41,292 bases of DNA from positions 1-41,292 of IMG/VR virus record IMGVR_UViG_2718217795_000002. One strand, written 5' to 3'. Position numbers and translations under genes: made by a program. Position 1 is the stretch's first letter, and the number at the start of each line of letters is the position of its first letter. This document shows, piece after piece, positions 1,778 to 40,284 of the stretch. The notes beneath the pieces are model-generated. The model was not told the origin of the DNA. It did not search any database and worked only from the letters and a program-made list of their open reading frames with translations. The DNA comes from a virus. Taxonomy: Duplodnaviria > Heunggongvirae > Uroviricota > Caudoviricetes.

Positions 1778-1978
1778 TTACCCATTGGCGCGGCTTAAGA
1801 GCTTATTTTTGAATTCACAATGGTCACGATATAACCATCTTGCTCGACCGTGGATAACTTTGGCTTTTGGCAGGTCGCCGGACTTAATCCGGTCATAGAT
1901 GAAGGTTTTACCAAAGCCAGTATCGGCCATGATGAATTTCAAATCAACCAGTGAATCAGGCTGTAGTTCGTGTTGCAT
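1778..1978 (-). CDS. torI: Excisionase-like / AlpA-family DNA-binding protein TorI, 66 aa
   Basis: 66-aa ORF immediately inside attR; sequence MQHELQPDSLVDLKFIMADTGFGKTF... recalled as E. coli KplE1 TorI. Confidence 0.8.
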   Translation of the reverse strand: MQHELQPDSLVDLKFIMADTGFGKTFIYDRIKSGDLPKAKVIHGRARWLYRDHCEFKNKLLSRANG

Positions 1979-27679: not shown

Positions 27680-29507
27680 ATTTGAGCTTAAGGCGTTGAT
27701 CACCGGTGTCGACAGGCTTTCTCCCGCGCTGTCGAAAATGCAAAAGAAAATCCGGGGATTTAAACGCCAGGCGGAAGAAGCGTCACAGGGTGGGCTGGCG
27801 CTTGGTGGCGGACTGGCTGCGGGTCTGACGCTTTCCCTGAAATCTTATGCCGATCAGGAAAACGCCGCCACCGGGCTGAAAGTCGCCATGATGGATGCGA
27901 ACGGCGAGGTTGGAAAGAGCTTTCAGGACATCAATAAACTGGCTATTGGCCTGGGTAACCAGCTACCCGGTACAACGGCTGATTTCCAGAACATGATGCA
28001 GATGCTGGTGCGTCAGGGGATCCCGGCAGAAAACATTCTTGGTGGTGTGGGTAAAGCGACAGCTTATCTTGCGGTACAACTGAAAAAAACACCGGAAGCG
28101 GCTGCTGAGTTTGCCGCAAAGATGCAGGATGCTACCGGAACGGCCTCAGAAGACATGATGGGGCTGTTCGACACAATTCAGAAGGCGTTTTATCTGGGCG
28201 TGGACGATACCAACATGTTGTCCTTCTTCACTAAAACCAGCTCTGTTCTGAAGATGGTGAACAAGGACGGTCTTCAGGCTGCACAGAGCCTTGCCCCCAT
28301 CAGCGTCATGATGGATCAGATGGGGATGAACGGGGAGTCGGCAGGTAACGCCCTGCGAAAAGTTATCCAGTCCGGATTAAGCGTTAAGAAAATCAGGGAC
28401 GTCAATAAAATCATGGCCCGCCAGAAACTCGGGGTACAGCTCGATTTTACTGACGGCAAAGGGAGTTTTGGCGGTCTTGATAACATGTTCAGGCAACTGG
28501 CAAAGCTGCGAAAACTGACCGACGTTAAACGAACTGGTGTACTTAAGGCAATATTTGGTGATGATGCCGAAACCCTTCAGGTGGTCAATGCACTAATCGA
28601 TAAAGGAAAGGATGGCTACGATCAGATCCAGCAGAAGATGAATAAACAGGCCAGCCTGAATAAACGTGTTCAGGCACAGCTTGGTACGCTGTCCAACCTG
28701 TGGGAGGCAATGACGGGGACCGCAACTAACGGCCTTGCGGCTATTGGCGGCGCATTTTCTGGTGACGCTAAAAATATCACGCAATGGCTGGGGGAGTTAG
28801 GGGAAAAATTCACGAAGTTTGCGGATGAAAATCCCCGGGTTATTCGCGGCGTCGTCGGGCTTGCTGCCGGTCTTGCGATTCTGAAACTGGGATTGATGGG
28901 CGTGGGCAGTGCCATCAGTATTGTCAGCAGGATCATGTCGATGACGCCGATTGGCATGATTGCGACGGCGATAGCCCTGGCTGCGGGATTAATTATCACT
29001 AACTGGGATGTTGTCGGACCTTATTTTAAGAAACTCTGGGAAACCATTGGTCCTTATTTTGAGGCTGGCTGGGAACTCCTTAAGAAAGTTTTTGCCTGGT
29101 CGCCGCTGGGGATGGTGATCAATAACTGGGGGCCGGTTGTAAAGTGGTTTCAGGATATGTGGGATAAGCTGAAGCCAATTATTGAGTGGCTTACCGACAG
29201 TTCCGGTGACACGGTCGATGCCATTAACTCGGCGCAGTGGGGTGCGGGTGCTTATGATGCTTATGGGACGGGAATACCGGCGCGGGGATACACACCTTAT
29301 CCGGCGGTGGATCCGGCTCAGTCAAACAACGCCTCTAATGCCACAGGCCCGAATCCCTTCATGATTAACAAAGCTTCTGCGCCAAAAGTTGATGGTGAGA
29401 TCAAGGTATCTTTTGTGAATTCGCCTCCGGGTATGCGGGTTATGGAAACGCGATCCAGCGGTTTTGATGTCAGCCATGATGTTGGCTATACGCGCTTTGG
29501 CAGGTAA
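27672..29507 (+). CDS. Tail tape measure protein, 611 aa
   Basis: AGGAG SD; long alpha-helical protein with a hydrophobic internal segment; position. Confidence 0.9.
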   Translation: MAEFELKALITGVDRLSPALSKMQKKIRGFKRQAEEASQGGLALGGGLAAGLTLSLKSYADQENAATGLKVAMMDANGEVGKSFQDINKLAIGLGNQLPGTTADFQNMMQMLVRQGIPAENILGGVGKATAYLAVQLKKTPEAAAEFAAKMQDATGTASEDMMGLFDTIQKAFYLGVDDTNMLSFFTKTSSVLKMVNKDGLQAAQSLAPISVMMDQMGMNGESAGNALRKVIQSGLSVKKIRDVNKIMARQKLGVQLDFTDGKGSFGGLDNMFRQLAKLRKLTDVKRTGVLKAIFGDDAETLQVVNALIDKGKDGYDQIQQKMNKQASLNKRVQAQLGTLSNLWEAMTGTATNGLAAIGGAFSGDAKNITQWLGELGEKFTKFADENPRVIRGVVGLAAGLAILKLGLMGVGSAISIVSRIMSMTPIGMIATAIALAAGLIITNWDVVGPYFKKLWETIGPYFEAGWELLKKVFAWSPLGMVINNWGPVVKWFQDMWDKLKPIIEWLTDSSGDTVDAINSAQWGAGAYDAYGTGIPARGYTPYPAVDPAQSNNASNATGPNPFMINKASAPKVDGEIKVSFVNSPPGMRVMETRSSGFDVSHDVGYTRFGR

Positions 29508-29567
29508 TGAAAAATTAATCTGTTAATGAGTCCCACTCCGGTGGGATTTTTTATGTACGGAGTTTAT

Positions 29568-30896
29568 ATGACGTGGAAAGACAGACTTCAGGACGCGTCA
29601 TTTCGCGGTGTGCCGTTTAAGGTTGAAGAAGAAAGTGCGGGAACCGGCCGTCGTGTGGAAACGCACGAATACCCGAACCGCGACAAACCCTATACCGAGG
29701 ACCTGGGGAAAATCACTTTCCGCCCGTCCATCACGGCTTATGTGGTGGGAGATGACTGCTTTGACCAGCGCGATCGCCTGATTGACGCGCTGAATAAACC
29801 CGGTCCCGGCACGCTTGTCCATCCGACTTACGGTGAGCTGAAAGTCTGTGTTGACGGGGAAGTTCGGGTCAGCACATCGAAGAGTGAAGGGCGTATTGTC
29901 CGTTTTGACCTGAAGTTTGTCGAAGCAGGAGAACTCTCTTACCCCACATCAGGTGCGGCGACGGCGCAGACGCTGATGTCATCCTGTTCTGCACTGGATG
30001 ACTGCATCAGTGACAGCTTCAGCGGTTTCAGTATCGATGGCGTGGCGGATTTCGTGCAGAACGACGTCGTTGGTAATGTCAGCACAATGCTTGGGTATGT
30101 TTCTGATGCGATGAAAGTGGTGGATTCTGCCGTATCGGATGCCGCCAGGCTGTTGCAGGGGGATATCTCGGTACTTCTGCCGCCGCCATCGTCAGGCAAA
30201 AATTTCGTTGAGCAGGTGCAGAAAATGTGGCGTACCGGGAAACGCCTTTATGGTAACGCCAGCGACCTGGTCACCATGATCAAAACGCTTTCCGGTGTCA
30301 GCCTCGGCAGCGATCTGCAACCGCGCGGCGTCTGGAAAACGGACAGTAAAACCACCGCCACGGCGACGCAGCAGCGTAACGTGGTTGCCAGCACCCTTCG
30401 TACGACCGCAATCAGCGAAGCGGCGTATGCCGTCACCCGATTGCCTGCGCCAACAACTTCCGCGGTGATGCAGAATTCCTCAGTGGGGCAGGCTACAACA
30501 CCTGCGCAGAGCACTGGCTGGCCTTCCGTCACGCATCCGGCACTGAACAATGCACCGGCGGTGAAAAACAAGGTTGACCTGCCGACGTGGGAAGAACTGA
30601 CTGACATTCGCGACACACTGAATACGGCAATTGATAAGGAGTTGTCCCGTACAACCAGTGATGCGCTGTTTCTGGCGCTGCGCCGGGTGAAAGCAGATCT
30701 GAATGCGGATATCAACACGCGCCTTGAACAGTCTGCACGGATCATTCAGCGCACACCGGATGAGGTTTTACCCGCGCTGGTGCTGGCGGCGACCTGGTTT
30801 GATAACGCGGCGCGTGACGCGGACATTATCCGGCGTAATGCCATTACGCATCCCGGCTTTGTGCCGGTGATCCCTCTGAAGGTGCCAGTGCAATGA
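29568..30896 (+). CDS. DNA circularisation protein N-like tail protein (Mu gp43-like), about 442 aa
   Basis: Mu gp43-family N-terminus (MTWKDRLQDASFRGVPF); start set at ATG 29568 with GGAG SD (track 29526). Confidence 0.8.
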   Translation: MTWKDRLQDASFRGVPFKVEEESAGTGRRVETHEYPNRDKPYTEDLGKITFRPSITAYVVGDDCFDQRDRLIDALNKPGPGTLVHPTYGELKVCVDGEVRVSTSKSEGRIVRFDLKFVEAGELSYPTSGAATAQTLMSSCSALDDCISDSFSGFSIDGVADFVQNDVVGNVSTMLGYVSDAMKVVDSAVSDAARLLQGDISVLLPPPSSGKNFVEQVQKMWRTGKRLYGNASDLVTMIKTLSGVSLGSDLQPRGVWKTDSKTTATATQQRNVVASTLRTTAISEAAYAVTRLPAPTTSAVMQNSSVGQATTPAQSTGWPSVTHPALNNAPAVKNKVDLPTWEELTDIRDTLNTAIDKELSRTTSDALFLALRRVKADLNADINTRLEQSARIIQRTPDEVLPALVLAATWFDNAARDADIIRRNAITHPGFVPVIPLKVPVQ

Positions 30897-31972
30897 ACGA
30901 CAATGTCACGCTACGGGTAAATGGCCGGGAGTGGAATGGCTGGACATCGGTGCGCATCGGTGCCGGTATTGAACGGCTGGCGCGGGATTTCAGTGTGGAG
31001 ATCACCCGCCAGTGGCCGGGAGATGAGGGTATCACCACGCTTCAGCCGCGCATTAAAAACGGTTCAAAAGTGGAAGTGCTGATTGGTGATGAGCTGGTGA
31101 TCACCGGCTGGGTGGAGGCGACGCCCGTTCGTTACGATGCCCGTTCGGTCAGCACCGGTATTGCCGGACGTAGTCTGACGGCTGACCTGATTGACTGTGC
31201 AGCCGAACCGACACAGTTTAACGGACGCTCGCTGGTGCAGATTGCGCAGGCGCTTGCTGCGCCTTTCGGCATTGAGGTGGTGAACAGCGGTGCGCCGTCG
31301 GGTGTTATTCCTGATGTTCAGCCTGATCACGGTGAAACGGTGATTGAGGTAATCAACAAAATACTCGGTCAGCAGCAGGCACTGGCTTACGACGACCCGC
31401 ACGGCAGGCTGGTGATTGGCGGTATTGGCTCAACGCGGGCACATACTGCGCTGGTACTCGGGGAAAACATCCTTTCCTGCGATACGGAGAAGAGTATCCG
31501 GGAGCGGTTTTCTGTTTACCAGGTGGCGGGGCAGCGTGCCGGAAACGACGATGATTTCGGTGAGGCCACCACCACCGCGCTGCGGGCCCGCACAGAGGAC
31601 GCATTTATTGCCCGTTACCGTCCGATGTATATCAGGCAGACAGGGCAGGCTACGGGGGCAGGCTGTATTGCGCGTGCTGACTTTGAAGCCCGGCAACGGG
31701 CGGCGCGGACGGATGAAACCACCTATGTGGTGCAGGGCTGGCGACAGGGTAACGGTACGCTGTGGCAGCCCAACCAGCGGGTGATTGTCTTTGATCCGGT
31801 CTGTGGTTTCGACAATACCGAACTGCTTGTTTCGGAAGTCACGTTTACTCAGGACCAGAACGGCACCCTGACGGAAATCCGTGTCGGCCCACCTGATGCT
31901 TATCTGCCTGAACCCGAAGCCCCCGGCGCGCGGAAAAAGAAAAAAGCCAGAGTACAGGAGGACCCGTTCTGA
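30893..31972 (+). CDS. Baseplate hub / tail protein P (Mu gp44-like), 359 aa
   Basis: ATGA coupling; Mu P-like similarity. Confidence 0.8.
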   Translation: MNDNVTLRVNGREWNGWTSVRIGAGIERLARDFSVEITRQWPGDEGITTLQPRIKNGSKVEVLIGDELVITGWVEATPVRYDARSVSTGIAGRSLTADLIDCAAEPTQFNGRSLVQIAQALAAPFGIEVVNSGAPSGVIPDVQPDHGETVIEVINKILGQQQALAYDDPHGRLVIGGIGSTRAHTALVLGENILSCDTEKSIRERFSVYQVAGQRAGNDDDFGEATTTALRARTEDAFIARYRPMYIRQTGQATGAGCIARADFEARQRAARTDETTYVVQGWRQGNGTLWQPNQRVIVFDPVCGFDNTELLVSEVTFTQDQNGTLTEIRVGPPDAYLPEPEAPGARKKKKARVQEDPF

Positions 31973-32520
31973 TGAGGACGATTGAAGCCATGCAGCGACA
32001 ACTCCTCGGCCTGATTGGGCGGGCAGTGGTGAAAAGCATCAGTGCCGCCACGAAATGTCAGACCGTGGATGTGTCCCTGATTGCCGGTGAACCCAAAGCC
32101 GGGGTTGAACATCTTGAACCCTACGGTTTTACCGCAAGGGCAAACAGCGGTGCGGAAGCGGTGGTGTTGTTTCCGGATGGCGACCGTTCTCATGCGGTGG
32201 TTGTTACGGTGTCGGACCGGCGCTACCGCCTGAAAGGGCTGCAGACGGGTGAGGTGGCTGTCTATGACGATCAGGGGCAGTCTGTGACGCTGACCCGGGA
32301 GGGGATCGTGGTGGACGGTGCAGGTAAAACGATCACGTTTCGCAATGCGCCCAGAGCACGTTTTGAAATGGACCTGGAAGTGACCGGACAGGTGAAAGAC
32401 CTGTGCGACTCCGGCGGTACCACCATGTCAGCGATGCGGCTTGCCTATAACGGGCATCGTCACAGAGAGAACGGTCAGGGCAGTAACACCGACAAACCGG
32501 ATAAAGCGATGGAGGCATGA
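31972..32520 (+). CDS. Baseplate assembly protein V / spike (Mu gp45-like), 182 aa
   Basis: Position and family similarity. Confidence 0.8.
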   Translation: MRTIEAMQRQLLGLIGRAVVKSISAATKCQTVDVSLIAGEPKAGVEHLEPYGFTARANSGAEAVVLFPDGDRSHAVVVTVSDRRYRLKGLQTGEVAVYDDQGQSVTLTREGIVVDGAGKTITFRNAPRARFEMDLEVTGQVKDLCDSGGTTMSAMRLAYNGHRHRENGQGSNTDKPDKAMEA

Positions 32521-32945
32521 TGGAACTGTGGCTGACGGTGAACGGTAAACGCACCTGCGCCAGCGCACCGCTGGATCCGCTGACCCGCGCCGTGGTGATT
32601 TCCCTGTTTACCTGGCGGCGGGCGGAGCCTGATGACAACGCCGACGTCCCGATGGGATGGTGGGGGGATACCTGGCCTGCGGTACAGAATGACCGTTACG
32701 GCTCCCGACTGTGGCTGCTTCAGCGCAGCAAACTGACCAATCAGCTGGTGCAGACGGTAAGGGGATATATCCGCGAATGCCTGCAATGGATGATTGATGA
32801 CGGCGTGGTGTCCCGTATTGATCTGGATATCCGCCGCACCGGGATTAATGAGCTGGGTAACAGTATCACCCTCTGGCGTCGTGATGGACCAGTAATGATT
32901 TCTTTTGATGATCTGTGGAGTGCGATAACGCATGGCGGACAGTGA
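32517..32945 (+). CDS. Baseplate protein (Mu gp46-like), 142 aa
   Basis: ATGA coupling; conserved position. Confidence 0.75.
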   Translation: MMELWLTVNGKRTCASAPLDPLTRAVVISLFTWRRAEPDDNADVPMGWWGDTWPAVQNDRYGSRLWLLQRSKLTNQLVQTVRGYIRECLQWMIDDGVVSRIDLDIRRTGINELGNSITLWRRDGPVMISFDDLWSAITHGGQ

Positions 32946-33990
32946 ATTTCAGCGCCCGACGCTGGCAGAAAATATCAGTATGCTCCGTAACGATTTATTC
33001 GCCAGGCTGGACGTCAGCGACACGCTCCGGCGCATGGATGAAGACGTGCGGGCAAAGGTGTATGCGGCGGCGCTGCATACGGTTTACGGGTACATCGATT
33101 ATCTGGCAATGAATATGCTGCCTGACCTGTGCGATGAGTCCTGGCTGGCGCGACATGCTGCGATGAAACGGTGTCCGCGCAAGGGGGCCACGGCTGCCAG
33201 CGGGTATATGCGCTGGGAAGGTGTCAGCGATGGCCTGAAGGTGACTGCCGGGAGCGTGATTCAGCGCGATGACCTGGTTCAGTACACGGCAACTGCCGAT
33301 GCAACCAGCTCCGGTGGTGTCCTGCGTGTGCCGATCACTTGCTCAACTACAGGCGCGGTCGGTAACGCTGACGACGGTACGGCATTAATCCTGGTCACGC
33401 CGGTGAATGGTCTGCCGTCTTCCGGTGTTGCAGATACCCTGACTGGCGGATTCGATACTGAAGATCTGGAAACGTGGCGCGCCCGCGTCATTGAGCGGTA
33501 TTACTGGACGCCGCAGGGCGGGGCTGACGGGGACTATGTCGTCTGGGCTAAAGAAGTGCCCGGCATTACCCGCGCATGGACATACCGTCACTGGATGGGA
33601 ACGGGAACTGTCGGTGTGATGATTGCCAGCAGTGACCTGATTAATCCCATTCCGGAAGAATCAACGGAAACGGCGGCAAGACAACATATCGGGCCACTGG
33701 CCCCGGTGGCAGGCTCTGATTTGTATGTGTTCAGGCCGGTGGCGCATAAAGTGGATTTTCATATCCGCGTGACGCCGGACACACCGGAAATACGGGCTGC
33801 CATCACCGCGGAGTTGCGTTCGTTCCTGCTGCGTGATGGTTATCCGCAGGGAGAACTGAAGGTGTCGCGTATCAGTGAGGCGATTTCCGGTGCGAACGGG
33901 GAATACAGCCATCAGTTGCTTGCACCGGCAGACAATATCTCCATTGCAAAAAATGAACTGGCGGTTCTGGGGACGATTTCATGGACGTGA
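32932..33990 (+). CDS. Baseplate J-like protein (Mu gp47-like), 352 aa
   Basis: Baseplate J family similarity. Confidence 0.85.
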
Positions 33991-34565
33991 CAAACGATGA
34001 TTACATCCGTCTGTTGTCGGCACTGTTGCCACCCGGTCCGGCGTGGTCAGCCAGAGATCCGGCGATTGCCGGTGCGGCACCGTCATTAACCCGCGTTCAT
34101 CAGCGTGCGGATGCCCTGATGCGGGAGCTGGATCCGCGCACCACCACTGAACTGATAAACCGCTGGGAGCGTCTGTGCGGTCTGCCGGATGAATGTATTC
34201 CCGCAGGGACACAGACCCTTCGCCAGCGTCAGCAACGGCTGGATGCGAAGGTTAATCTGGCGGGCGGCATCAATGAGGATTTTTACCTTGCACAGCTTGC
34301 TGCCATGGGCAGACCAGACGCCACTATCACGCGATACGATAAAAGCACGTTCACCTGCTCATCGGCCTGTACTGACGCGGTGAATGCGCCGGAATGGCGG
34401 TATTACTGGCAGGTCAACATGCCAGCCGCCACCAACACCACCTGGATGACATGTGGCGATCCCTGTGATTCCGCACTGCGTATCTGGGGCGACACCGTTG
34501 TCGAGTGCGTGCTTAACAAACTCTGCCCGTCGCATACCTACGTAATTTTTAAATATCCGGAGTAA
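33981..34565 (+). CDS. Tail protein (Mu gp48-like, DUF2313), 194 aa
   Basis: Position and family similarity. Confidence 0.75.
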
Positions 34566-34568
34566 TCC

Positions 34569-35540
34569 ATGCATCGTATAGACACGAAAACCGCGCAGAA
34601 GGATAAGTTCGGCGCGGGTAAGAACGGTTTTACCCGTGGTAACCCCCAGACCGGCACACCTGCCACCGATCTGGATGATGACTACTTTGACATGTTGCAG
34701 GAGGAGCTTTGCAGCGTTGTGGAGGCCTCCGGTGCCAGCCTGGAGAAAGGGCGGCACGACCAGTTGCTTACCGCGCTTCGTGCGCTGCTGTTAAGCCGCA
34801 AAAATCCGTTTGGCGATATCAAATCGGATGGCACGGTGAAAACGGCTCTCGAAAACCTTGATTTGGGAGATGAGAGCGGATACGTTGGCCGCCTGCTGAA
34901 CGTGCAGACTTTCTACACAAGCGGAACCTACACGCCTACAGCCGGCACGAAAAAAGTAATCGTTGAAATGGTTGGCGGCGGCGGTGGCGGCGCTGGAGCG
35001 CGCGCCGCAGGACCTGGCCAGGTAGCCGTTGGTGGTGCCGGAGGTGCTGGCTCGTATGCAAAAGCTCAGTTTACTTCTGGTTTTAGCGGCGTAAACGTAA
35101 TTGTTGGCTCAGGAGGGATGGGTGGCACTACATCTAATCCTTACGCAAGCAGCGGTGGCACTTCGTCTTTCGGCAATCTTGTTTCAGCTGCTGGGGGAGA
35201 TTCTGGCAAACCAGCCGGGCCGTCAGGCTCTTTCCCCTTCTCAACTGTGGCGGCAACTGTTTCAGCTTCGCCTTCAGGATCGGGTGTAATTGTCGGAACT
35301 CCCGGTGAAGGCGCAGCATCGTCCATTGCTTTGAGTGCTGGAGTTTCGATTTCTTCTCCCGGTGGATCGTCACGCTTTGGCGCGGGAGGATTCATTACTG
35401 CTTATGGTGCCAATGGTATTGATGGTGCAGGTTATGGCGCTGGCGGTGGACCTGTTGCGACGTCAACAGGCACGCCTAATACTGCTCTGGCAGGTGGTAA
35501 CGGATCTATGGGTATTGTGATTGTTTGGGAGTATGCATAA
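34569..35540 (+). CDS. Tail fibre protein with glycine-rich C-terminal region, 323 aa
   Basis: Conserved N-terminus [22 protein letters not shown]; Gly-rich C-terminal half; followed by tfa. Confidence 0.8.
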
Positions 35541-35941
35541 TGGAAGCTGAAGACTACGCAGTAATTGATGGTGATGGAAATATTGTGAATGTTATCGTTT
35601 GGGATGGCGTCACAGAATGGGAACCACCTGAAGGTACTCAGGCAGTAAGGTGCGGTGATAACCTTTACGGGATTGGCGGAACATATAAAGACGGGGTATT
35701 CACCTTTCCTCCGGCGCCAGAGGTACCAAAAGAGGATTTAATTAATCAGGCAGAACAGCAAAAGGCCAACCTGATAGCCGAAGCAAGCCAGACGATCTCC
35801 ATACTTCAGGATGCGATCGACCTAGACATGGCGACAGATGAAGAAAGAACACAGTTAACTACACTGAAAAAATATCGCGTGCTTTTAAGCCGGGTTGATA
35901 CTTCCAAGGCGCCTGATATTGACTGGCCGACAGCCATATAA
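35540..35941 (+). CDS. Tail fibre assembly protein, about 133 aa
   Basis: Start ATG 35540 overlapping tail-fibre stop; Tfa-like C-terminal region. Confidence 0.75.
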   Translation: MEAEDYAVIDGDGNIVNVIVWDGVTEWEPPEGTQAVRCGDNLYGIGGTYKDGVFTFPPAPEVPKEDLINQAEQQKANLIAEASQTISILQDAIDLDMATDEERTQLTTLKKYRVLLSRVDTSKAPDIDWPTAI

Positions 35942-35947
35942 ATTTCA

Positions 35948-35965
35948 CCCCGGCTTAAGCCGGGG
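35948..35965. terminator. 18-bp perfect palindrome ccccggcttaagccgggg between convergent tfa and gtrC; possible bidirectional terminator
   Basis: Perfect palindrome at the convergence point; no clear T-run on either strand. Confidence 0.35.
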
Positions 35966-35970
35966 CATCC

Positions 35971-37443
35971 TCAGCACTTAGTTCTTAGAAAATCAATGAT
36001 CAGAATATCATTGAATGAGTAAAGTGAGTAAATGCTTCCCTTGGTGATCAGGGTGCTTTTACATATCATATTTTTCTTTTCACTTCCTAATACTTTGAAC
36101 TCTAAATTCATTCCATAGTGATTTAGAAGTTCCGCTCCCCAAACCCAGTCATAACTCAAGTAAACAGGAACGAGCTTTGACATAAGCGGTAGTTTATTTT
36201 CCGCCATGAGCAATTGCCTTGACTTAGGCATTTCTCCATTAACAGTAACGTATTTGAGGCTAAATTCATGGTGAGATGTTTCCTGAAATACGGAGGTGGC
36301 TATTATCTCATCAGTTATGGACTGGCTCTTGGACGCATTGGAAAAAGAGTAACTGTAAACAAAGCTAATCCAAACTAACGGAGCGAAAATAAAAGTCAAA
36401 ATTACAGGGCTTTTTATATTTCGCAGCATCAGGAAAGCATAAAACATAGCTGCACCAGAAAAAGAGAGAAGAACCCTTGGTGCAAAAACTGGGCTTTTAA
36501 GTATTGCCATAGGTGCTATTGAAAATACCAGAACTAAAAAGGGTGATAATATCAGGATTAAAAGAGCTATAGCATTATCTTTTGAGCCTATCTTATAGAT
36601 TTCATAAGCCATTTTAATTGTTGAATATGCAATTGCTGAGGGGATTAAAACCCTTAATGCGACAGGCATGCTATGAAAATAGCTATTCAAAAACCATAGG
36701 AAGCTTTTGATGTTCTCAATAAGCACCGATAAGGATTCATGGCTTAACTTAATAACTTCAGAGTGAGTTATGTTATAGTAATCCTTAACGAAGTAAGAAG
36801 ATATAAATGTCTTATATATCAGGAAGGCTATAAACAGCTGCATTACCCTTCTTGCTATCATTGAAGCAATATGTTTGTTGCCTTTGTTCGAAGCCGTAAT
36901 AGATTCAATCAAAGCCAGAATAGCAAACAGACCTATTGATGCCTGATAAAGAGAAAGAGATCCTATAATCATAAGAATAGAAAATAGGTCGCTTATGTAT
37001 CGCCTGCTGGCAACTGAGTATGGAATTAGCAGTAACACCATGCTCAAAGCCATTGTTAAAGAGTCAAATCTGTATGAAAGGTTCTCAATGTAGAATGGAT
37101 TTGCTATGAACAGAAAGCATATAACAAGCGATCCTATAAAGCTAATTTCGCCAAAAAATTTTGCAGCATAATAATACAGGGCAATGCAAAGTATCAAAAC
37201 ACTTAATATTTGATTGAGTGGTGACAAGTCTAGCAGTTCACCGCCTAAGCTCATAGACTGCATTATTGCATCACTTAACGGCCTGCCGTTTAACCCCCAT
37301 CCGGAATATCCATACAGAGTCCGACCCAAGTCATCAATGTAGAGCCTGCCCGTTAAGATTATAGGCATCACATAAAGTGCAATCAAAGCACAGAAAAACA
37401 TGAAAGAGAATGTGCGCGGTTGCTTTTTAAAAATTGAAATCAT
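35971..37443 (-). CDS. Serotype-specific O-antigen glucosyltransferase (GtrC/Gtr-type-specific, polytopic membrane protein), about 490 aa
   Basis: Third gene of gtr cassette; many predicted TM helices; start set at ATG 37443, 7 nt after gtrB stop (track ORF extends to 37533 and overlaps gtrB). Confidence 0.8.
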   Translation of the reverse strand: MISIFKKQPRTFSFMFFCALIALYVMPIILTGRLYIDDLGRTLYGYSGWGLNGRPLSDAIMQSMSLGGELLDLSPLNQILSVLILCIALYYYAAKFFGEISFIGSLVICFLFIANPFYIENLSYRFDSLTMALSMVLLLIPYSVASRRYISDLFSILMIIGSLSLYQASIGLFAILALIESITASNKGNKHIASMIARRVMQLFIAFLIYKTFISSYFVKDYYNITHSEVIKLSHESLSVLIENIKSFLWFLNSYFHSMPVALRVLIPSAIAYSTIKMAYEIYKIGSKDNAIALLILILSPFLVLVFSIAPMAILKSPVFAPRVLLSFSGAAMFYAFLMLRNIKSPVILTFIFAPLVWISFVYSYSFSNASKSQSITDEIIATSVFQETSHHEFSLKYVTVNGEMPKSRQLLMAENKLPLMSKLVPVYLSYDWVWGAELLNHYGMNLEFKVLGSEKKNMICKSTLITKGSIYSLYSFNDILIIDFLRTKC

Positions 37444-37450
37444 ATAGATG

Positions 37451-38368
37451 TCATTCCTTTGACTTAGTAATGTATCTTGGTCTGTTCTTTGTTTCGATGT
37501 AAATGCGGCCAATGTATTCGCCGAGCACTCCAATACCTATCAGCTGAACGCCGCCAAGGAATAGCATCGATACCATTATCGATGTATATCCCTTCACCGG
37601 ATTGCCAAAACAAAGGGTATCCACAATCATGTATGCCCCATAAAAAAATGAGCAACCGGCTACGAAGAGACCGATATACGTCCACATTCTCAGCGGGAAG
37701 GTAGAAAAACTCGTTATCCCTTCAAGCGCCAGATTCCAAAGTTTCCAGCCATTAAACTTACTTTTTCCTGCGGCTCTTTCGGCTCTAACGTATTCAACCA
37801 CATCTGTCTTACCACCTACCCAGGATAGTATCCCCTTCATAAAAAGGTTTCTCTCAGGCAGCAGTTTGATGTGTTCGACAACTTCTCGGGACATAAGACG
37901 AAAATCGCCGACGTTCTCTTCAATTTGAGGATTACTGATTAAGTTGTGAAGATGGTAGAACCATTCAGCGCTTTTTCTCTTGAGGTAGCTATCGCAAGAC
38001 CTATCCATGCGCTTTGCCAGAACAACATCAGCCCCTTCTCGCCATTTCTCAATCATGCGCGGAATGACTTCCAGCGGGTCCTGAAGGTCCACGTCTATAG
38101 GTATTACCACCTCGCCGCTGGCCTCTGCTAGCCCAGCAAATAACGCAGCTTCTTTACCAAAGTTGCGAGTAAAGAATATGTTTTTGACCAGACTATCTTC
38201 CTGCGCCATCTCTTTCATCAGAACAGCAGTGAAGTCAGTGCTACCGTCATCTACAAAGACAATTTCAACCTCTTCCCCCTGGAAGGGCTGAAAATGACGG
38301 ATTTCCCTATAGAAAATGGTTATGGCGTCTTCTTCATTAAATACCGGAACGACAAGGGATATTTTCAT
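37451..38368 (-). CDS. gtrB: Bactoprenol glucosyltransferase GtrB (GT2 family), 305 aa
   Basis: [13 protein letters not shown]..., DDGSTD motif, two C-terminal TM helices. Confidence 0.95.
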
Positions 38369-38727
38369 CCTCTATCCTTGAAAACAATGTACTTTGAATA
38401 AATGAATCCACACACCATGCTGATGGCGGAGAAGGTGACAAGAGTGACAATTGGAGGAAGTGAACATCTATCAGCAGCCCATCCAACAGTAGCACTCAGT
38501 GTTCCCATGAACCCGACATATAACATGTAGCGCATCGTTGTAGTTGATGCTTTGAATGTGAATTTTGCATTCGCAAAGAAGCTAAAACTCACAGCCACAA
38601 CGAAACCTGCGAAGTTTGCCATAGCCTGATTGGTATGCGCGGCATAGATACATACACCAAAAACCACCCAGTGTATAAGTGTGTTCAGCACGCCAATCAA
38701 GGTGTACTTTGCAAATAGCTTTAACAT
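38365..38727 (-). CDS. gtrA: GtrA flippase-like membrane protein, 120 aa
   Basis: Small 4-TM protein upstream of and overlapping gtrB. Confidence 0.9.
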
Positions 38728-38890
38728 TTCTTCTATCAGCTAATAATCAAAAGCATGAAGTCTATCATCTAAGTCTCAATCGATCGATACTTGCTGTAGT
38801 TGATGAGACAAAACTCTGGCACACAAAGCTTTGCACTGGATTACAAGGCCATGTGTCAGATCAAGTCGCGACTAATACAGTTAAGGCGGA

Positions 38891-40084
38891 TCACTCCACC
38901 TTTTCATCAAGCCAGTCCGCCCACCATTGCATCATTTCTCTGCGCTTATCGAGATACTGAGCATGGTTGTAAATTCCACGTACAGATCCGCCGTTGGCAT
39001 GTGCCAGTTGCACTTCAATGGCGTCGGCAGGCCATTCGTGCTCGTTCATAATCGTGCTGAATTCATGCCTGAATCCGTGACCGCTTTCCAGACCTTCATA
39101 GCCGATTTGTTTGATCACAAGCAATACCGCGTTCTCGCAGATTGGCTTCTTCTTATCGTTGCGCCCGGCAAAAACAAACTCTGATACTGGTTTGGTGATT
39201 GAGCTTAGCGTAGTGAGAAGTTCAACCACCTGGTCTGACATCGGGACCACATGAATTTTGCGTCCCTTCATCACATTGGCGTCAATGGTGATAATCCTGT
39301 TTTCAAAATCGACGTTCTTCCATTGCATGGAACGAAGCTCTTTTGTTCTTAGGGCTGTGTAGCGTAAAACCTTGGTGGCAATGAGCGATACGATACTTCC
39401 TGAAAATGTTGCCAGTGCTTTATTGAATGCCGGGATCTGGTCTGCAGGAAGAAACGGGAAGTTCTTCTTGCGGTATCCCTTCATGGCGTCAGCAAGGTCA
39501 GGTGCTGGGTTATATTTAGCCCTTCCGGTGACAATAGCGTAACGGAAAACCTCGCCGCATCTTCTGCGGGCTTTGTTGGCTCGCTCCATTGCACCGCGAT
39601 CTTCAAATCTGCGGATTACTTCCAGCAGTTGCATCGGCTCAATATCCTGAATCTCAAGACCGCCGATGATAGGTAAAATGTCGTCGTCAAACATTTTGGC
39701 AAGTTCAGTCGCATACCCTACAGACCATACTTGCTTCTTGTGCTCGTACCATTCTTTGTAAATCGCACTAAAGGAATTGTTGTTAGACGAAGCCTTTTTC
39801 GCCTTTACCGGATCGATGCCAACCGAGATGTCTTTCCTCGCAGTCCATGCCTTATCCCTTGCCTCCTGCAAAGTCATTAGCGGATATTTTCCTACGGTCA
39901 GGACTTTCTCCTTACCGTCAATCTTGTAGCGAAGCTGCCATACCTTTTTCCCTGATACAGGGACATAAAGGTACAGGCCATTACCATCGAGTAGGCGGTA
40001 TGGTTTTTCTTTCGGCTTAGCTGCTTCAATCTGCTTAACGGTGAGCATGGGTAAAAATCCGGTGGGTAAAATTATTTTATCCAC
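38891..40084 (-). CDS. intS: Tyrosine integrase, P4-like family (IntS-type, argW-specific), 397 aa
   Basis: N-terminal MLTVKQIEAAKPKEKPYRLLDGNGLYLYV...; C-terminal catalytic R..HxxR..Y region; adjacent to argW. Confidence 0.95.
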   Translation of the reverse strand: MDKIILPTGFLPMLTVKQIEAAKPKEKPYRLLDGNGLYLYVPVSGKKVWQLRYKIDGKEKVLTVGKYPLMTLQEARDKAWTARKDISVGIDPVKAKKASSNNNSFSAIYKEWYEHKKQVWSVGYATELAKMFDDDILPIIGGLEIQDIEPMQLLEVIRRFEDRGAMERANKARRRCGEVFRYAIVTGRAKYNPAPDLADAMKGYRKKNFPFLPADQIPAFNKALATFSGSIVSLIATKVLRYTALRTKELRSMQWKNVDFENRIITIDANVMKGRKIHVVPMSDQVVELLTTLSSITKPVSEFVFAGRNDKKKPICENAVLLVIKQIGYEGLESGHGFRHEFSTIMNEHEWPADAIEVQLAHANGGSVRGIYNHAQYLDKRREMMQWWADWLDEKVE

Positions 40085-40209
40085 TTTTTACCCGTCATGG
40101 AGTGCGGCTGTCAACGATCTGACGCGAACCATGACGAACCGTGAATATACGGAAGGCTTGATATTCAGGGGATTTTGCGGACTGGTACGGATGGGAGCGA
40201 ACTGATAAA

Positions 40210-40224
40210 TGGTGTCCCCTGCAG
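40210..40224. repeat. attL core: 15 bp of the argW 3' end duplicated at 1690-1704
   Basis: Exact direct repeat. Confidence 0.8.
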
Positions 40225-40284
40225 GAATCGAACCTGCAATTAGCCCTTAGGAGGGGCTCGTTATATCCATTTAACTAAGAGGAC
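40210..40284 (-). tRNA. argW: tRNA-Arg (anticodon CCU), 75 nt including CCA
   Basis: Reverse complement reads GTCCTCTTAGTTAAATGGATATAACGAGCCCCTCCTAAGGGCTAATTGCAGGTTCGATTCCTGCAGGGGACACCA; cloverleaf-consistent, CCT anticodon in loop. Confidence 0.95.

Follow-up and report, generated by a model that had tools for sequence, protein, structure and literature searches.

The element studied here is a three-gene gtr cassette at positions 35971-38890 of a viral DNA stretch of 41,292 nt (IMG/VR record IMGVR_UViG_2718217795_000002, Caudoviricetes), which we refer to as the window. Our analysis showed that this cassette is a real, intact and ordinary Gtr-type three-component lysogenic-conversion operon. 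It very probably belongs to an SfII-like myovirus prophage integrated at argW and glucosylates O-antigen, its third enzyme, encoded by a gtrC-like gene, representing a specificity type that has not been characterised. Within this reading, we infer from the comparisons reported below that glucose is the sugar, that O-antigen is the acceptor, and that the cassette is expressed and active in its host. A previous reading of the letters without database searches (hereafter, the sequence-only reading) had described the region as the serotype-converting moron of the prophage. The setting of the cassette supported this description, as it lies between the tail-fibre assembly gene and the integrase gene, and all three of its proteins fall into PHROG 'moron' families, named GtrA-like, GtrB and GtrC-like; glucosylation in the host is presumed.

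The interval contains three co-oriented genes on the minus strand, tightly packed in the order gtrA (38365-38727), gtrB (37451-38368) and gtrC-like (35971-37443). gtrA encodes a small membrane protein of 120 aa, a putative flippase of undecaprenyl-phosphate-glucose. gtrB encodes a 305-aa undecaprenyl-phosphate glucosyltransferase of the GT2 family, whose C-terminal part contains two membrane helices, seen as hydrophobic stretches around residues 231-252 and 264-286, and the gtrC-like gene encodes the type-specific transferase, a polytopic membrane protein with a GT-C fold. The gtrB ATG overlaps the gtrA stop codon by 4 nt, and a gap of 7 nt separates the gtrB stop codon from the gtrC-like ATG at 37443, which sits 12 nt past an AAGGAA. 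The longest open reading frame (ORF) for the gtrC-like gene starts at a TTG at 37533, within gtrB, and would encode 520 aa. Translation from the ATG at 37443 gives 490 aa, in agreement with the 488-494 aa of nearly all close homologues, and we therefore consider the estimate of about 490 aa given by the sequence-only reading to be correct. The terminator scan reported a single terminator for the cassette, a minus-strand hairpin at 35946-35967, directly 3′ of the gtrC stop codon, with a 9-pair stem (7 GC pairs), a 4-nt loop and a T-rich tail, AAATTTATAT. As this hairpin is located in a 29-bp gap facing the convergent tail-fibre assembly gene, it may work in both directions. At the other end, the right edge of the interval (38890) is the last base before the integrase stop codon. 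The GC content of the phage structural genes is 55.3%, versus 43.0% for gtrA, 45.0% for gtrB and 36.8% for gtrC. NCBIfam has no model for GtrA or GtrC, and GtrB scored under every equivalog cutoff.

GtrA and GtrB had been regarded as conserved and the third gene as variable, and both statements held in our comparisons. GtrA matched PF04138 (GtrA/DPMS-TM, E=8.9e-15) and PHROG 2224 (E=1.4e-67), and by BLASTP it is 91.5% identical in amino acid sequence to K-12 YfdG, 86% to the GtrA of the Sf phages and 77% to P22 GtrA. GtrB matched PF00535 (GT2, E=1.2e-31) and aligned over its full length with the Synechocystis GtrB of known crystal structure (5EKP, E=3.4e-86). It is 74-77% identical to the GtrB proteins of SfII, SfV, SfI, SfIV and P22, 73.5% to its K-12 counterpart, and 99.3% to the GtrB of Klebsiella prophages. 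Since its identity to the GtrB of glucose systems is 74-77%, versus 38% for a galactose system, the comparison points to glucose as the sugar transferred.

The gtrC-like protein matched the Pfam family PF14264 ('Glucosyl transferase GtrII', E=2.9e-29) and PHROG 4829, the family of P22 GtrC (E=4.6e-94), where residues 15-490 aligned with profile positions 14-485 of 485. The third protein had been described as polytopic, and this was borne out by a confidently predicted structure (predicted local distance difference test score, pLDDT, of 93.8), in which a short N-terminal stretch (K6, K7, R10) is followed by approximately 11-12 membrane helices and by an alpha/beta C-terminal domain extending from about residue 392 to 490. 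A fold comparison of the model placed GT-C proteins at the top, nearly all of them polyprenyl-phosphate-sugar transferases (Pmt4, STT3, AftB, ALG12, ArnT, PglB). A sequence search of the PDB gave no match, and the GT-C placement comes from the fold comparison only. Members of the GT-C superfamily (ArnT, PglB/STT3, PMTs, ALG and Aft enzymes) share 7-13% sequence identity with the model and differ in acceptors and donors.

The usual catalytic signature of GT-C enzymes is an acidic pair in the first extracytoplasmic loop. Right after the first transmembrane helix, the gtrC-like protein carries the motif Y35-I-D37-D38-x-x-R41. In the family alignment Y35, D37, D38, R41 and G45 are invariant in 39 homologues with identities as low as 18%, and P75, P116, Y166, Q167, R323, Q374 and G403 are likewise invariant. 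The DD motif, in what is predicted to be the first periplasmic loop, is probably catalytic. Altogether, the three-component Gtr reading is based on the overlap of gtrA and gtrB, the short gap before gtrC, the shared terminator, the family and PHROG matches and a layout like that of K-12 CPS-53, as well as on the low GC content of the type gene, the confident GT-C model, the invariant motif, and the preservation of the protein at 99-100% identity across hundreds of genomes.

To compare the gtrC-like protein with characterised type enzymes by BLASTP, we took their sequences from phage and K-12 records. No alignment at E<10 was obtained with GtrI, GtrII, GtrIV, GtrV or YfdI, while P22 GtrC was 31% identical over 92% of the length. 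Judged by this alignment and by the profile match, the protein belongs to the P22 GtrC family as a distant relative. Because the identity to P22 GtrC is only 31%, the acceptor and linkage of P22 (O:1 factor) are not transferable to it. A tblastn search of 50,697 phage records yielded no match above 32% and none at all in Shigella phages.

Two further systems were considered and rejected. The gtrIC cluster is treated as invariant, and the three primers published for it (PMC4924310) had no match in the window at ≤3 mismatches. The published fusion points of GtrIc, F31, H32 and V495 (PMC3259042), cannot be reconciled with T31, G32 and the length of 490 aa found here, and gtrIC is located at tRNA-Pro versus argW for our cassette. 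GmlABD, a Klebsiella system for galactosylation (O2aeh), was compared because the gtrC-like protein is common in Klebsiella. It follows the same logic, pairing a GT2 enzyme with a small GtrA-like protein and a large polytopic transferase, and it is also mobile, E. coli plasmid CP057196 being named as a gmlABD carrier (supplementary information of PMC10629545). The sugar it adds is galactose. When the locus on CP057196.1 was compared with ours, the 674-aa GmlD gave E=0.15, a similarity that is not significant, GmlB was 37.7% identical to GtrB, and GmlA was 31% identical over 68 aa, half of GmlA.

We therefore see virtually no chance that the gtrC-like gene encodes an already characterised type enzyme (GtrI, II, IV, V, X, Ic, YfdI/GtrS, P22 GtrC or GmlD). 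Such an identity might be suggested by the name of PF14264, which was taken from GtrII, by the PHROG family common to this protein and P22 GtrC, and by a prophage backbone that is 97% identical to SfI, SfII, SfIV and SfV. It is contradicted by the blank BLASTP results, the 31% identity to P22 GtrC, the ceiling of 32% among phage records with no Shigella phage, which as regards GtrX is the sole and indirect evidence, the mismatching primers and residues of GtrIc, and the E value of GmlD. Identity to a characterised Gtr enzyme was the outcome that, according to the sequence-only reading, would have spoken against a new type, and the protein proved identical to none of GtrI, II, IV, V, Ic, YfdI, P22 GtrC and GmlD. 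The enzyme thus appears, by these comparisons, to be of a specificity type uncharacterised so far. The suggestion that the type is distinct stood in part: the protein matches no studied type that we tested, but the identical sequence is already widespread in the databases under a generic name. The remark that its specificity cannot be read from the sequence still applies, the acceptor sugar and the linkage not being deducible. Searches of the literature on Klebsiella gtrABC prophages found nothing relevant.

The cassette would act in three steps. GtrB, a GT2 enzyme at the cytoplasmic face of the membrane, would make undecaprenyl-phosphate-glucose from UDP-glucose, and GtrA would flip the lipid-linked glucose to the periplasmic face. 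The 490-aa GT-C enzyme would then, via its DD motif, move the glucose onto one defined sugar of the O-antigen while the latter is still linked to undecaprenyl pyrophosphate, before ligation. The soluble C-terminal domain of this enzyme probably reads the acceptor. If this mechanism is true, the serotype should change, and so should the receptor for phages that depend on O-antigen.

The type-specific protein is not new as a sequence; its type is uncharacterised, yet abundant in databases. The 490-aa sequence is identical to API48191.1 ('MULTISPECIES: glucosyltransferase domain-containing protein [Enterobacteriaceae]'), which has API48190.1 (GtrB) and API48189.1 (GtrA) as neighbours, and identical copies, annotated only generically, were found on hundreds of E. 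coli and Klebsiella contigs. Its hosts include E. coli, K. pneumoniae, the K. michiganensis/oxytoca group and Citrobacter. Of the ten longest contexts, nine are Klebsiella chromosomes (K. pneumoniae, K. michiganensis/oxytoca), in which the gene is part of another prophage that adjoins a type VI secretion cluster and dinI. At the nucleotide level these loci are 99.9% identical to ours in gtrC and 98.8% in gtrB, but only 68.6% in gtrA, whereas in E. coli MB30 gtrC is 99.7% identical and gtrB about 86% over the 721 nt aligned. Because the identities of gtrA, gtrB and gtrC step differently in the Klebsiella loci and in MB30, we place recombination breakpoints at the gene junctions, and the different breakpoints suggest that recombination in conserved flanks moves the type gene as a module that may or may not include gtrB. 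All Klebsiella loci with the same gtrC share the 29-bp spacer that holds the terminator, at 100% identity. Moreover, an otherwise different Klebsiella prophage has, next to the same gtrC, a tfa with 93% identity to ours over the 3′-terminal 234 nt of the tail-fibre assembly gene, a segment that apparently travels with the gtr module.

The Sf-like prophage end itself was also found outside E. coli. In K. pneumoniae GCA_051091225.1, the tenth of these contexts, the same end is present at that genome's own argW (window positions 27971-40209 were compared). Nucleotide identity reaches 100% in int and in the spacer between gtrA and int, 99.9% in gtrABC and 96-99.6% in the tail genes, against only 77% in the neighbouring yfdC. 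As the prophage is near-identical and the flanking yfdC is not, the comparison indicates a recent cross-genus spread. Among complete E. coli genomes 7 of 5,426 carry this gtrC, none of them in the window's exact combination. Scanning the GTDB species representatives with the single gtrC-like protein found nothing, and a profile scan found only distant relatives, at ≤45% identity and mostly without an adjacent gtrB. The closest non-identical relatives of the protein come from Pantoea. Distant PF14264 relatives are spread over many phyla, including Pseudomonadota, Bacillota, Desulfobacterota and Bacteroidota, and in the closest GTDB representatives (Erwinia piriflorinigrans and Candidatus Pantoea alvi) they seem to be orphan genes. 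In E. coli DLI.6n (NZ_CP103974.1, 1964340-1967375) the cassette match ends just before the integrase, there is no annotated intS beneath it, and the neighbourhood has an offset unlike that of the argW carriers; this cassette may be part of a prophage at another chromosomal site.

Several observations weigh against the view that the cassette glucosylates O-antigen in its host. Our literature searches found no paper on this gtrC-like protein and no experimental evidence for it. A generic sigma-70 scan upstream of gtrA reported no promoter, homology to P22 being the sole basis for one, and a GtrB-like gene was found within 5 kb of the PF14264 relative in 16 of 80 GTDB representatives. The window does not include the O-antigen locus of the host, and the acceptor is therefore not identifiable from it. 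Furthermore, the identical enzyme occurs in K. pneumoniae, K. michiganensis and E. coli with unrelated O loci. The O locus of the carrier MB30 (rmlBDAC-wzx-wzy) is common to only four other complete genomes, all of them non-carriers. In a second carrier, GDSC2239PM (NZ_CP136018.1, 1803342-1807110), the galF-gnd interval holds only a truncated flippase and a WbuC fragment, and the gtr cassette is intact. As MB30 and GDSC2239PM differ completely at this locus, carriage is not tied to one O type, and as carriers have unrelated O loci, and GDSC2239PM almost none, carriage is no proof of function. Some hosts probably offer the cassette no substrate.

These observations lead to the possibility, which we consider doubtful but real, that the cassette is passenger DNA without a phenotype here and that its cognate acceptor is the O-antigen of another host, perhaps Klebsiella or a Pantoea-like bacterium. 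The int-gtrABC module at 99.9-100% identity in K. pneumoniae, next to flanks of only 77%, would fit this explanation, as would the small number of E. coli carriers, the complete difference between two of them at the O locus, which one of them lacks, and the Pantoea origin of the closest non-identical relatives. Yet the three ORFs are intact and the conserved upstream region and the terminator were kept, a match with the O-antigen of the host may exist, and gtr modules that protect lysogens are normally retained by phages. A different question is whether the sugar transferred is one other than glucose, such as galactose, as in GmlABD, or N-acetylglucosamine. Identical GtrC and 99.3% identical GtrB occur in many Klebsiella prophages, and Klebsiella does add galactose by a Gtr-like three-component system (PMC9176290, PMC7556023). 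Nevertheless, we judge this quite improbable, since GtrB is 74-77% identical to the GtrB of glucosylating phages versus 37.7% to GmlB of an authentic gmlABD locus, and since gmlABD was reported by Kaptive in 0 of 12,093 Klebsiella genomes (PMC9176290), yet the gtrC-like protein is common in this genus.

The presence of the identical protein in E. coli, K. pneumoniae, the K. michiganensis/oxytoca group and Citrobacter, and in an E. coli strain that lacks an O-antigen cluster, could also mean that the acceptor is not a serotype-specific O-antigen, but an undecaprenyl-built glycan common to Enterobacteriaceae, such as enterobacterial common antigen (ECA), a capsule unit or a reducing-end primer. 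Phage mobility suffices to explain the distribution, no positive evidence supports such an acceptor, and we know of no Gtr-type system that acts on ECA, capsule or primer acceptors; we therefore hold this to be very unlikely. The related claim, that the 100% identical GtrC works in both E. coli and Klebsiella on an acceptor that is not serotype-specific and is common to the Enterobacteriaceae (such as ECA, a reducing-end primer or a common disaccharide), also seems improbable to us. If it is true, the cassette would be a 'universal' moron for surface glucosylation, with a broad host range and with several types of prophage as its vehicles. Glucosylation of the O-antigen by a Gtr-type operon of uncharacterised specificity remains the reading that we prefer.

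Glucosylation of O-antigen side branches alters the serotype, antibody recognition and phage adsorption, and unlinked gtr cassettes are a known cause of mismatch between the serotype predicted from the O locus and the phenotype. Knowing the acceptor of this cassette would improve in-silico serotyping (ECTyper, Kaptive) and could matter for O-antigen vaccines and for phage therapy in Klebsiella. The cassette extends a well-understood system and opens no new one. Three points are of modest note: E. coli and Klebsiella have the identical enzyme, modules were exchanged at the gtrA/gtrB and gtrB/gtrC junctions, and an Sf-like phage has taken the argW/IntS integration module in place of its own.

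The regulatory region upstream of gtrA (38728-38890, minus strand) shows conservation relative to CPS-53, SfII and SfV, and to P22 in part. Its alignment with the upstream regions of K-12 CPS-53, MB30, SfII, SfV and P22 revealed invariant blocks around ATCGA and AGACTTCA. The gtr promoter of P22 and its transcription-start geometry have been mapped (PMC2909390), and homology to it suggests a promoter here with a -35 element TCGATC at 38787-38782 and a -10 element TAGACT at 38764-38759. The Dam/OxyR phase variation of P22 and LT2_I involves four GATC sites, in two pairs 13 bp apart, with overlapping OxyR half-sites (PMC2909390). In the window GATC sites start at 38892, 38862 and 38785, with spacings of 30 and 77 bp. 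There is no GATC-N9-GATC in the region and only the equivalent of GATC4 aligns with P22, so that phase variation of the P22 type was rejected for this cassette.

The prophage that carries the cassette is a seemingly complete myovirus of the SfI/SfII/SfV type, inserted at argW of an E. coli-like chromosome. Its head, tail and baseplate genes share about 97% nucleotide identity with Shigella phages SfI, SfII, SfIV and SfV, and upstream in the prophage there are a CI-like repressor gene, replication O and DnaB-like genes, and RecT. The gene bordering the cassette on one side is a tail-fibre assembly gene of the lambda-gpK type (35525-35941, plus strand; PF02413, E=1e-29), convergent with gtrC. 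On the other side lies the gene of an IntS-type (P4-like) tyrosine integrase (38891-40048, minus strand; 385 aa; Pfam Arm-DNA-bind_3, Phage_int_M and Phage_integrase), followed by argW and then yfdC. The integrase start was set at the Met matching the K-12 IntS start (the ORF is extendable to a GTG at 40084), and the protein shares 99.2% identity with K-12 IntS and has no relationship to the integrases of the Sf phages. ARAGORN identified argW as a tRNA-Arg(CCT) at 40210-40284 (minus strand), which was the sole match of the Rfam scan (tRNA, 63.4 bits). Across the yfdC-argW flank, identity to E. coli chromosomes is 99.8%. The 3′ 15 nt of argW, TGGTGTCCCCTGCAG (40210-40224), form the right-hand core of the attachment (att) site and are repeated exactly at 1690-1704, the left-hand core. 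Because this core recurs at both ends, we delimited the prophage to 1690-40224, about 38.5 kb. Just inside the left core, at the prophage end opposite the integrase, there is an AlpA/Xis-like ORF (1778-1978, minus strand) for a 66-aa excisionase/regulator (PHROG 66, 'excisionase and transcriptional regulator', E=2.7e-8).

Comparison with known prophages puts this arrangement in perspective. In P22 gtrABC, which directs O:1 glucosylation and whose GtrC is also known as 'ORF485', the gene order and the place between a tail gene and the integrase region are the same, all three proteins belong to the same PHROGs, and GtrC gives a full-length hidden Markov model match. P22 differs in the low identity of its GtrC, in its four-GATC Dam/OxyR signature, which has no counterpart here, and in its attP, located between gtrA and int, whereas the att site of our prophage lies beyond int, away from gtrA. 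K-12 CPS-53 (argW-intS-yfdG-yfdH-yfdI-tfaS) has the identical chromosomal site and gene order and the same 15-nt att core; its annotation begins 15 nt inside argW. However, CPS-53 is a 10-kb remnant, compared with the full-length prophage here, and its YfdI, of 443 aa, has no detectable similarity to the 490-aa protein. In SfI, SfII, SfIV and SfV the gtr cassette likewise follows the tail-fibre assembly gene, but these phages integrate at thrW with another integrase, unlike the argW/IntS arrangement with att beyond int seen here, and their GtrI, II, IV and V lack detectable similarity to the gtrC-like protein. To judge from these differences, an Sf-like phage has swapped its own integration module for an argW/IntS module.

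A few observations concern the rest of the window. The tail-fibre protein encoded upstream of the assembly gene (34569-35540) is glycine-rich (PF21722) and falls within segment 34001-35970, in which the E. coli and K. pneumoniae copies of the prophage agree least (96.4%). At 1998-2013, some 300 bp in from the left end, a 16-nt sequence, GGAATCGAACCTGCAA, is an exact copy of an internal part of argW (40224-40239). It lies just upstream of the alpA/xis-like ORF, is distinct from the 15-nt core at 1690-1704, and may be a relic of an earlier integration. Finally, the left att site is flanked by a complete gene for a sugar/H+ symporter of the LacY family (1-1248; 415 aa; PF01306, E=1e-193), which we take to resemble cscB, the sucrose permease gene presumably located near argW in some E. 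coli.

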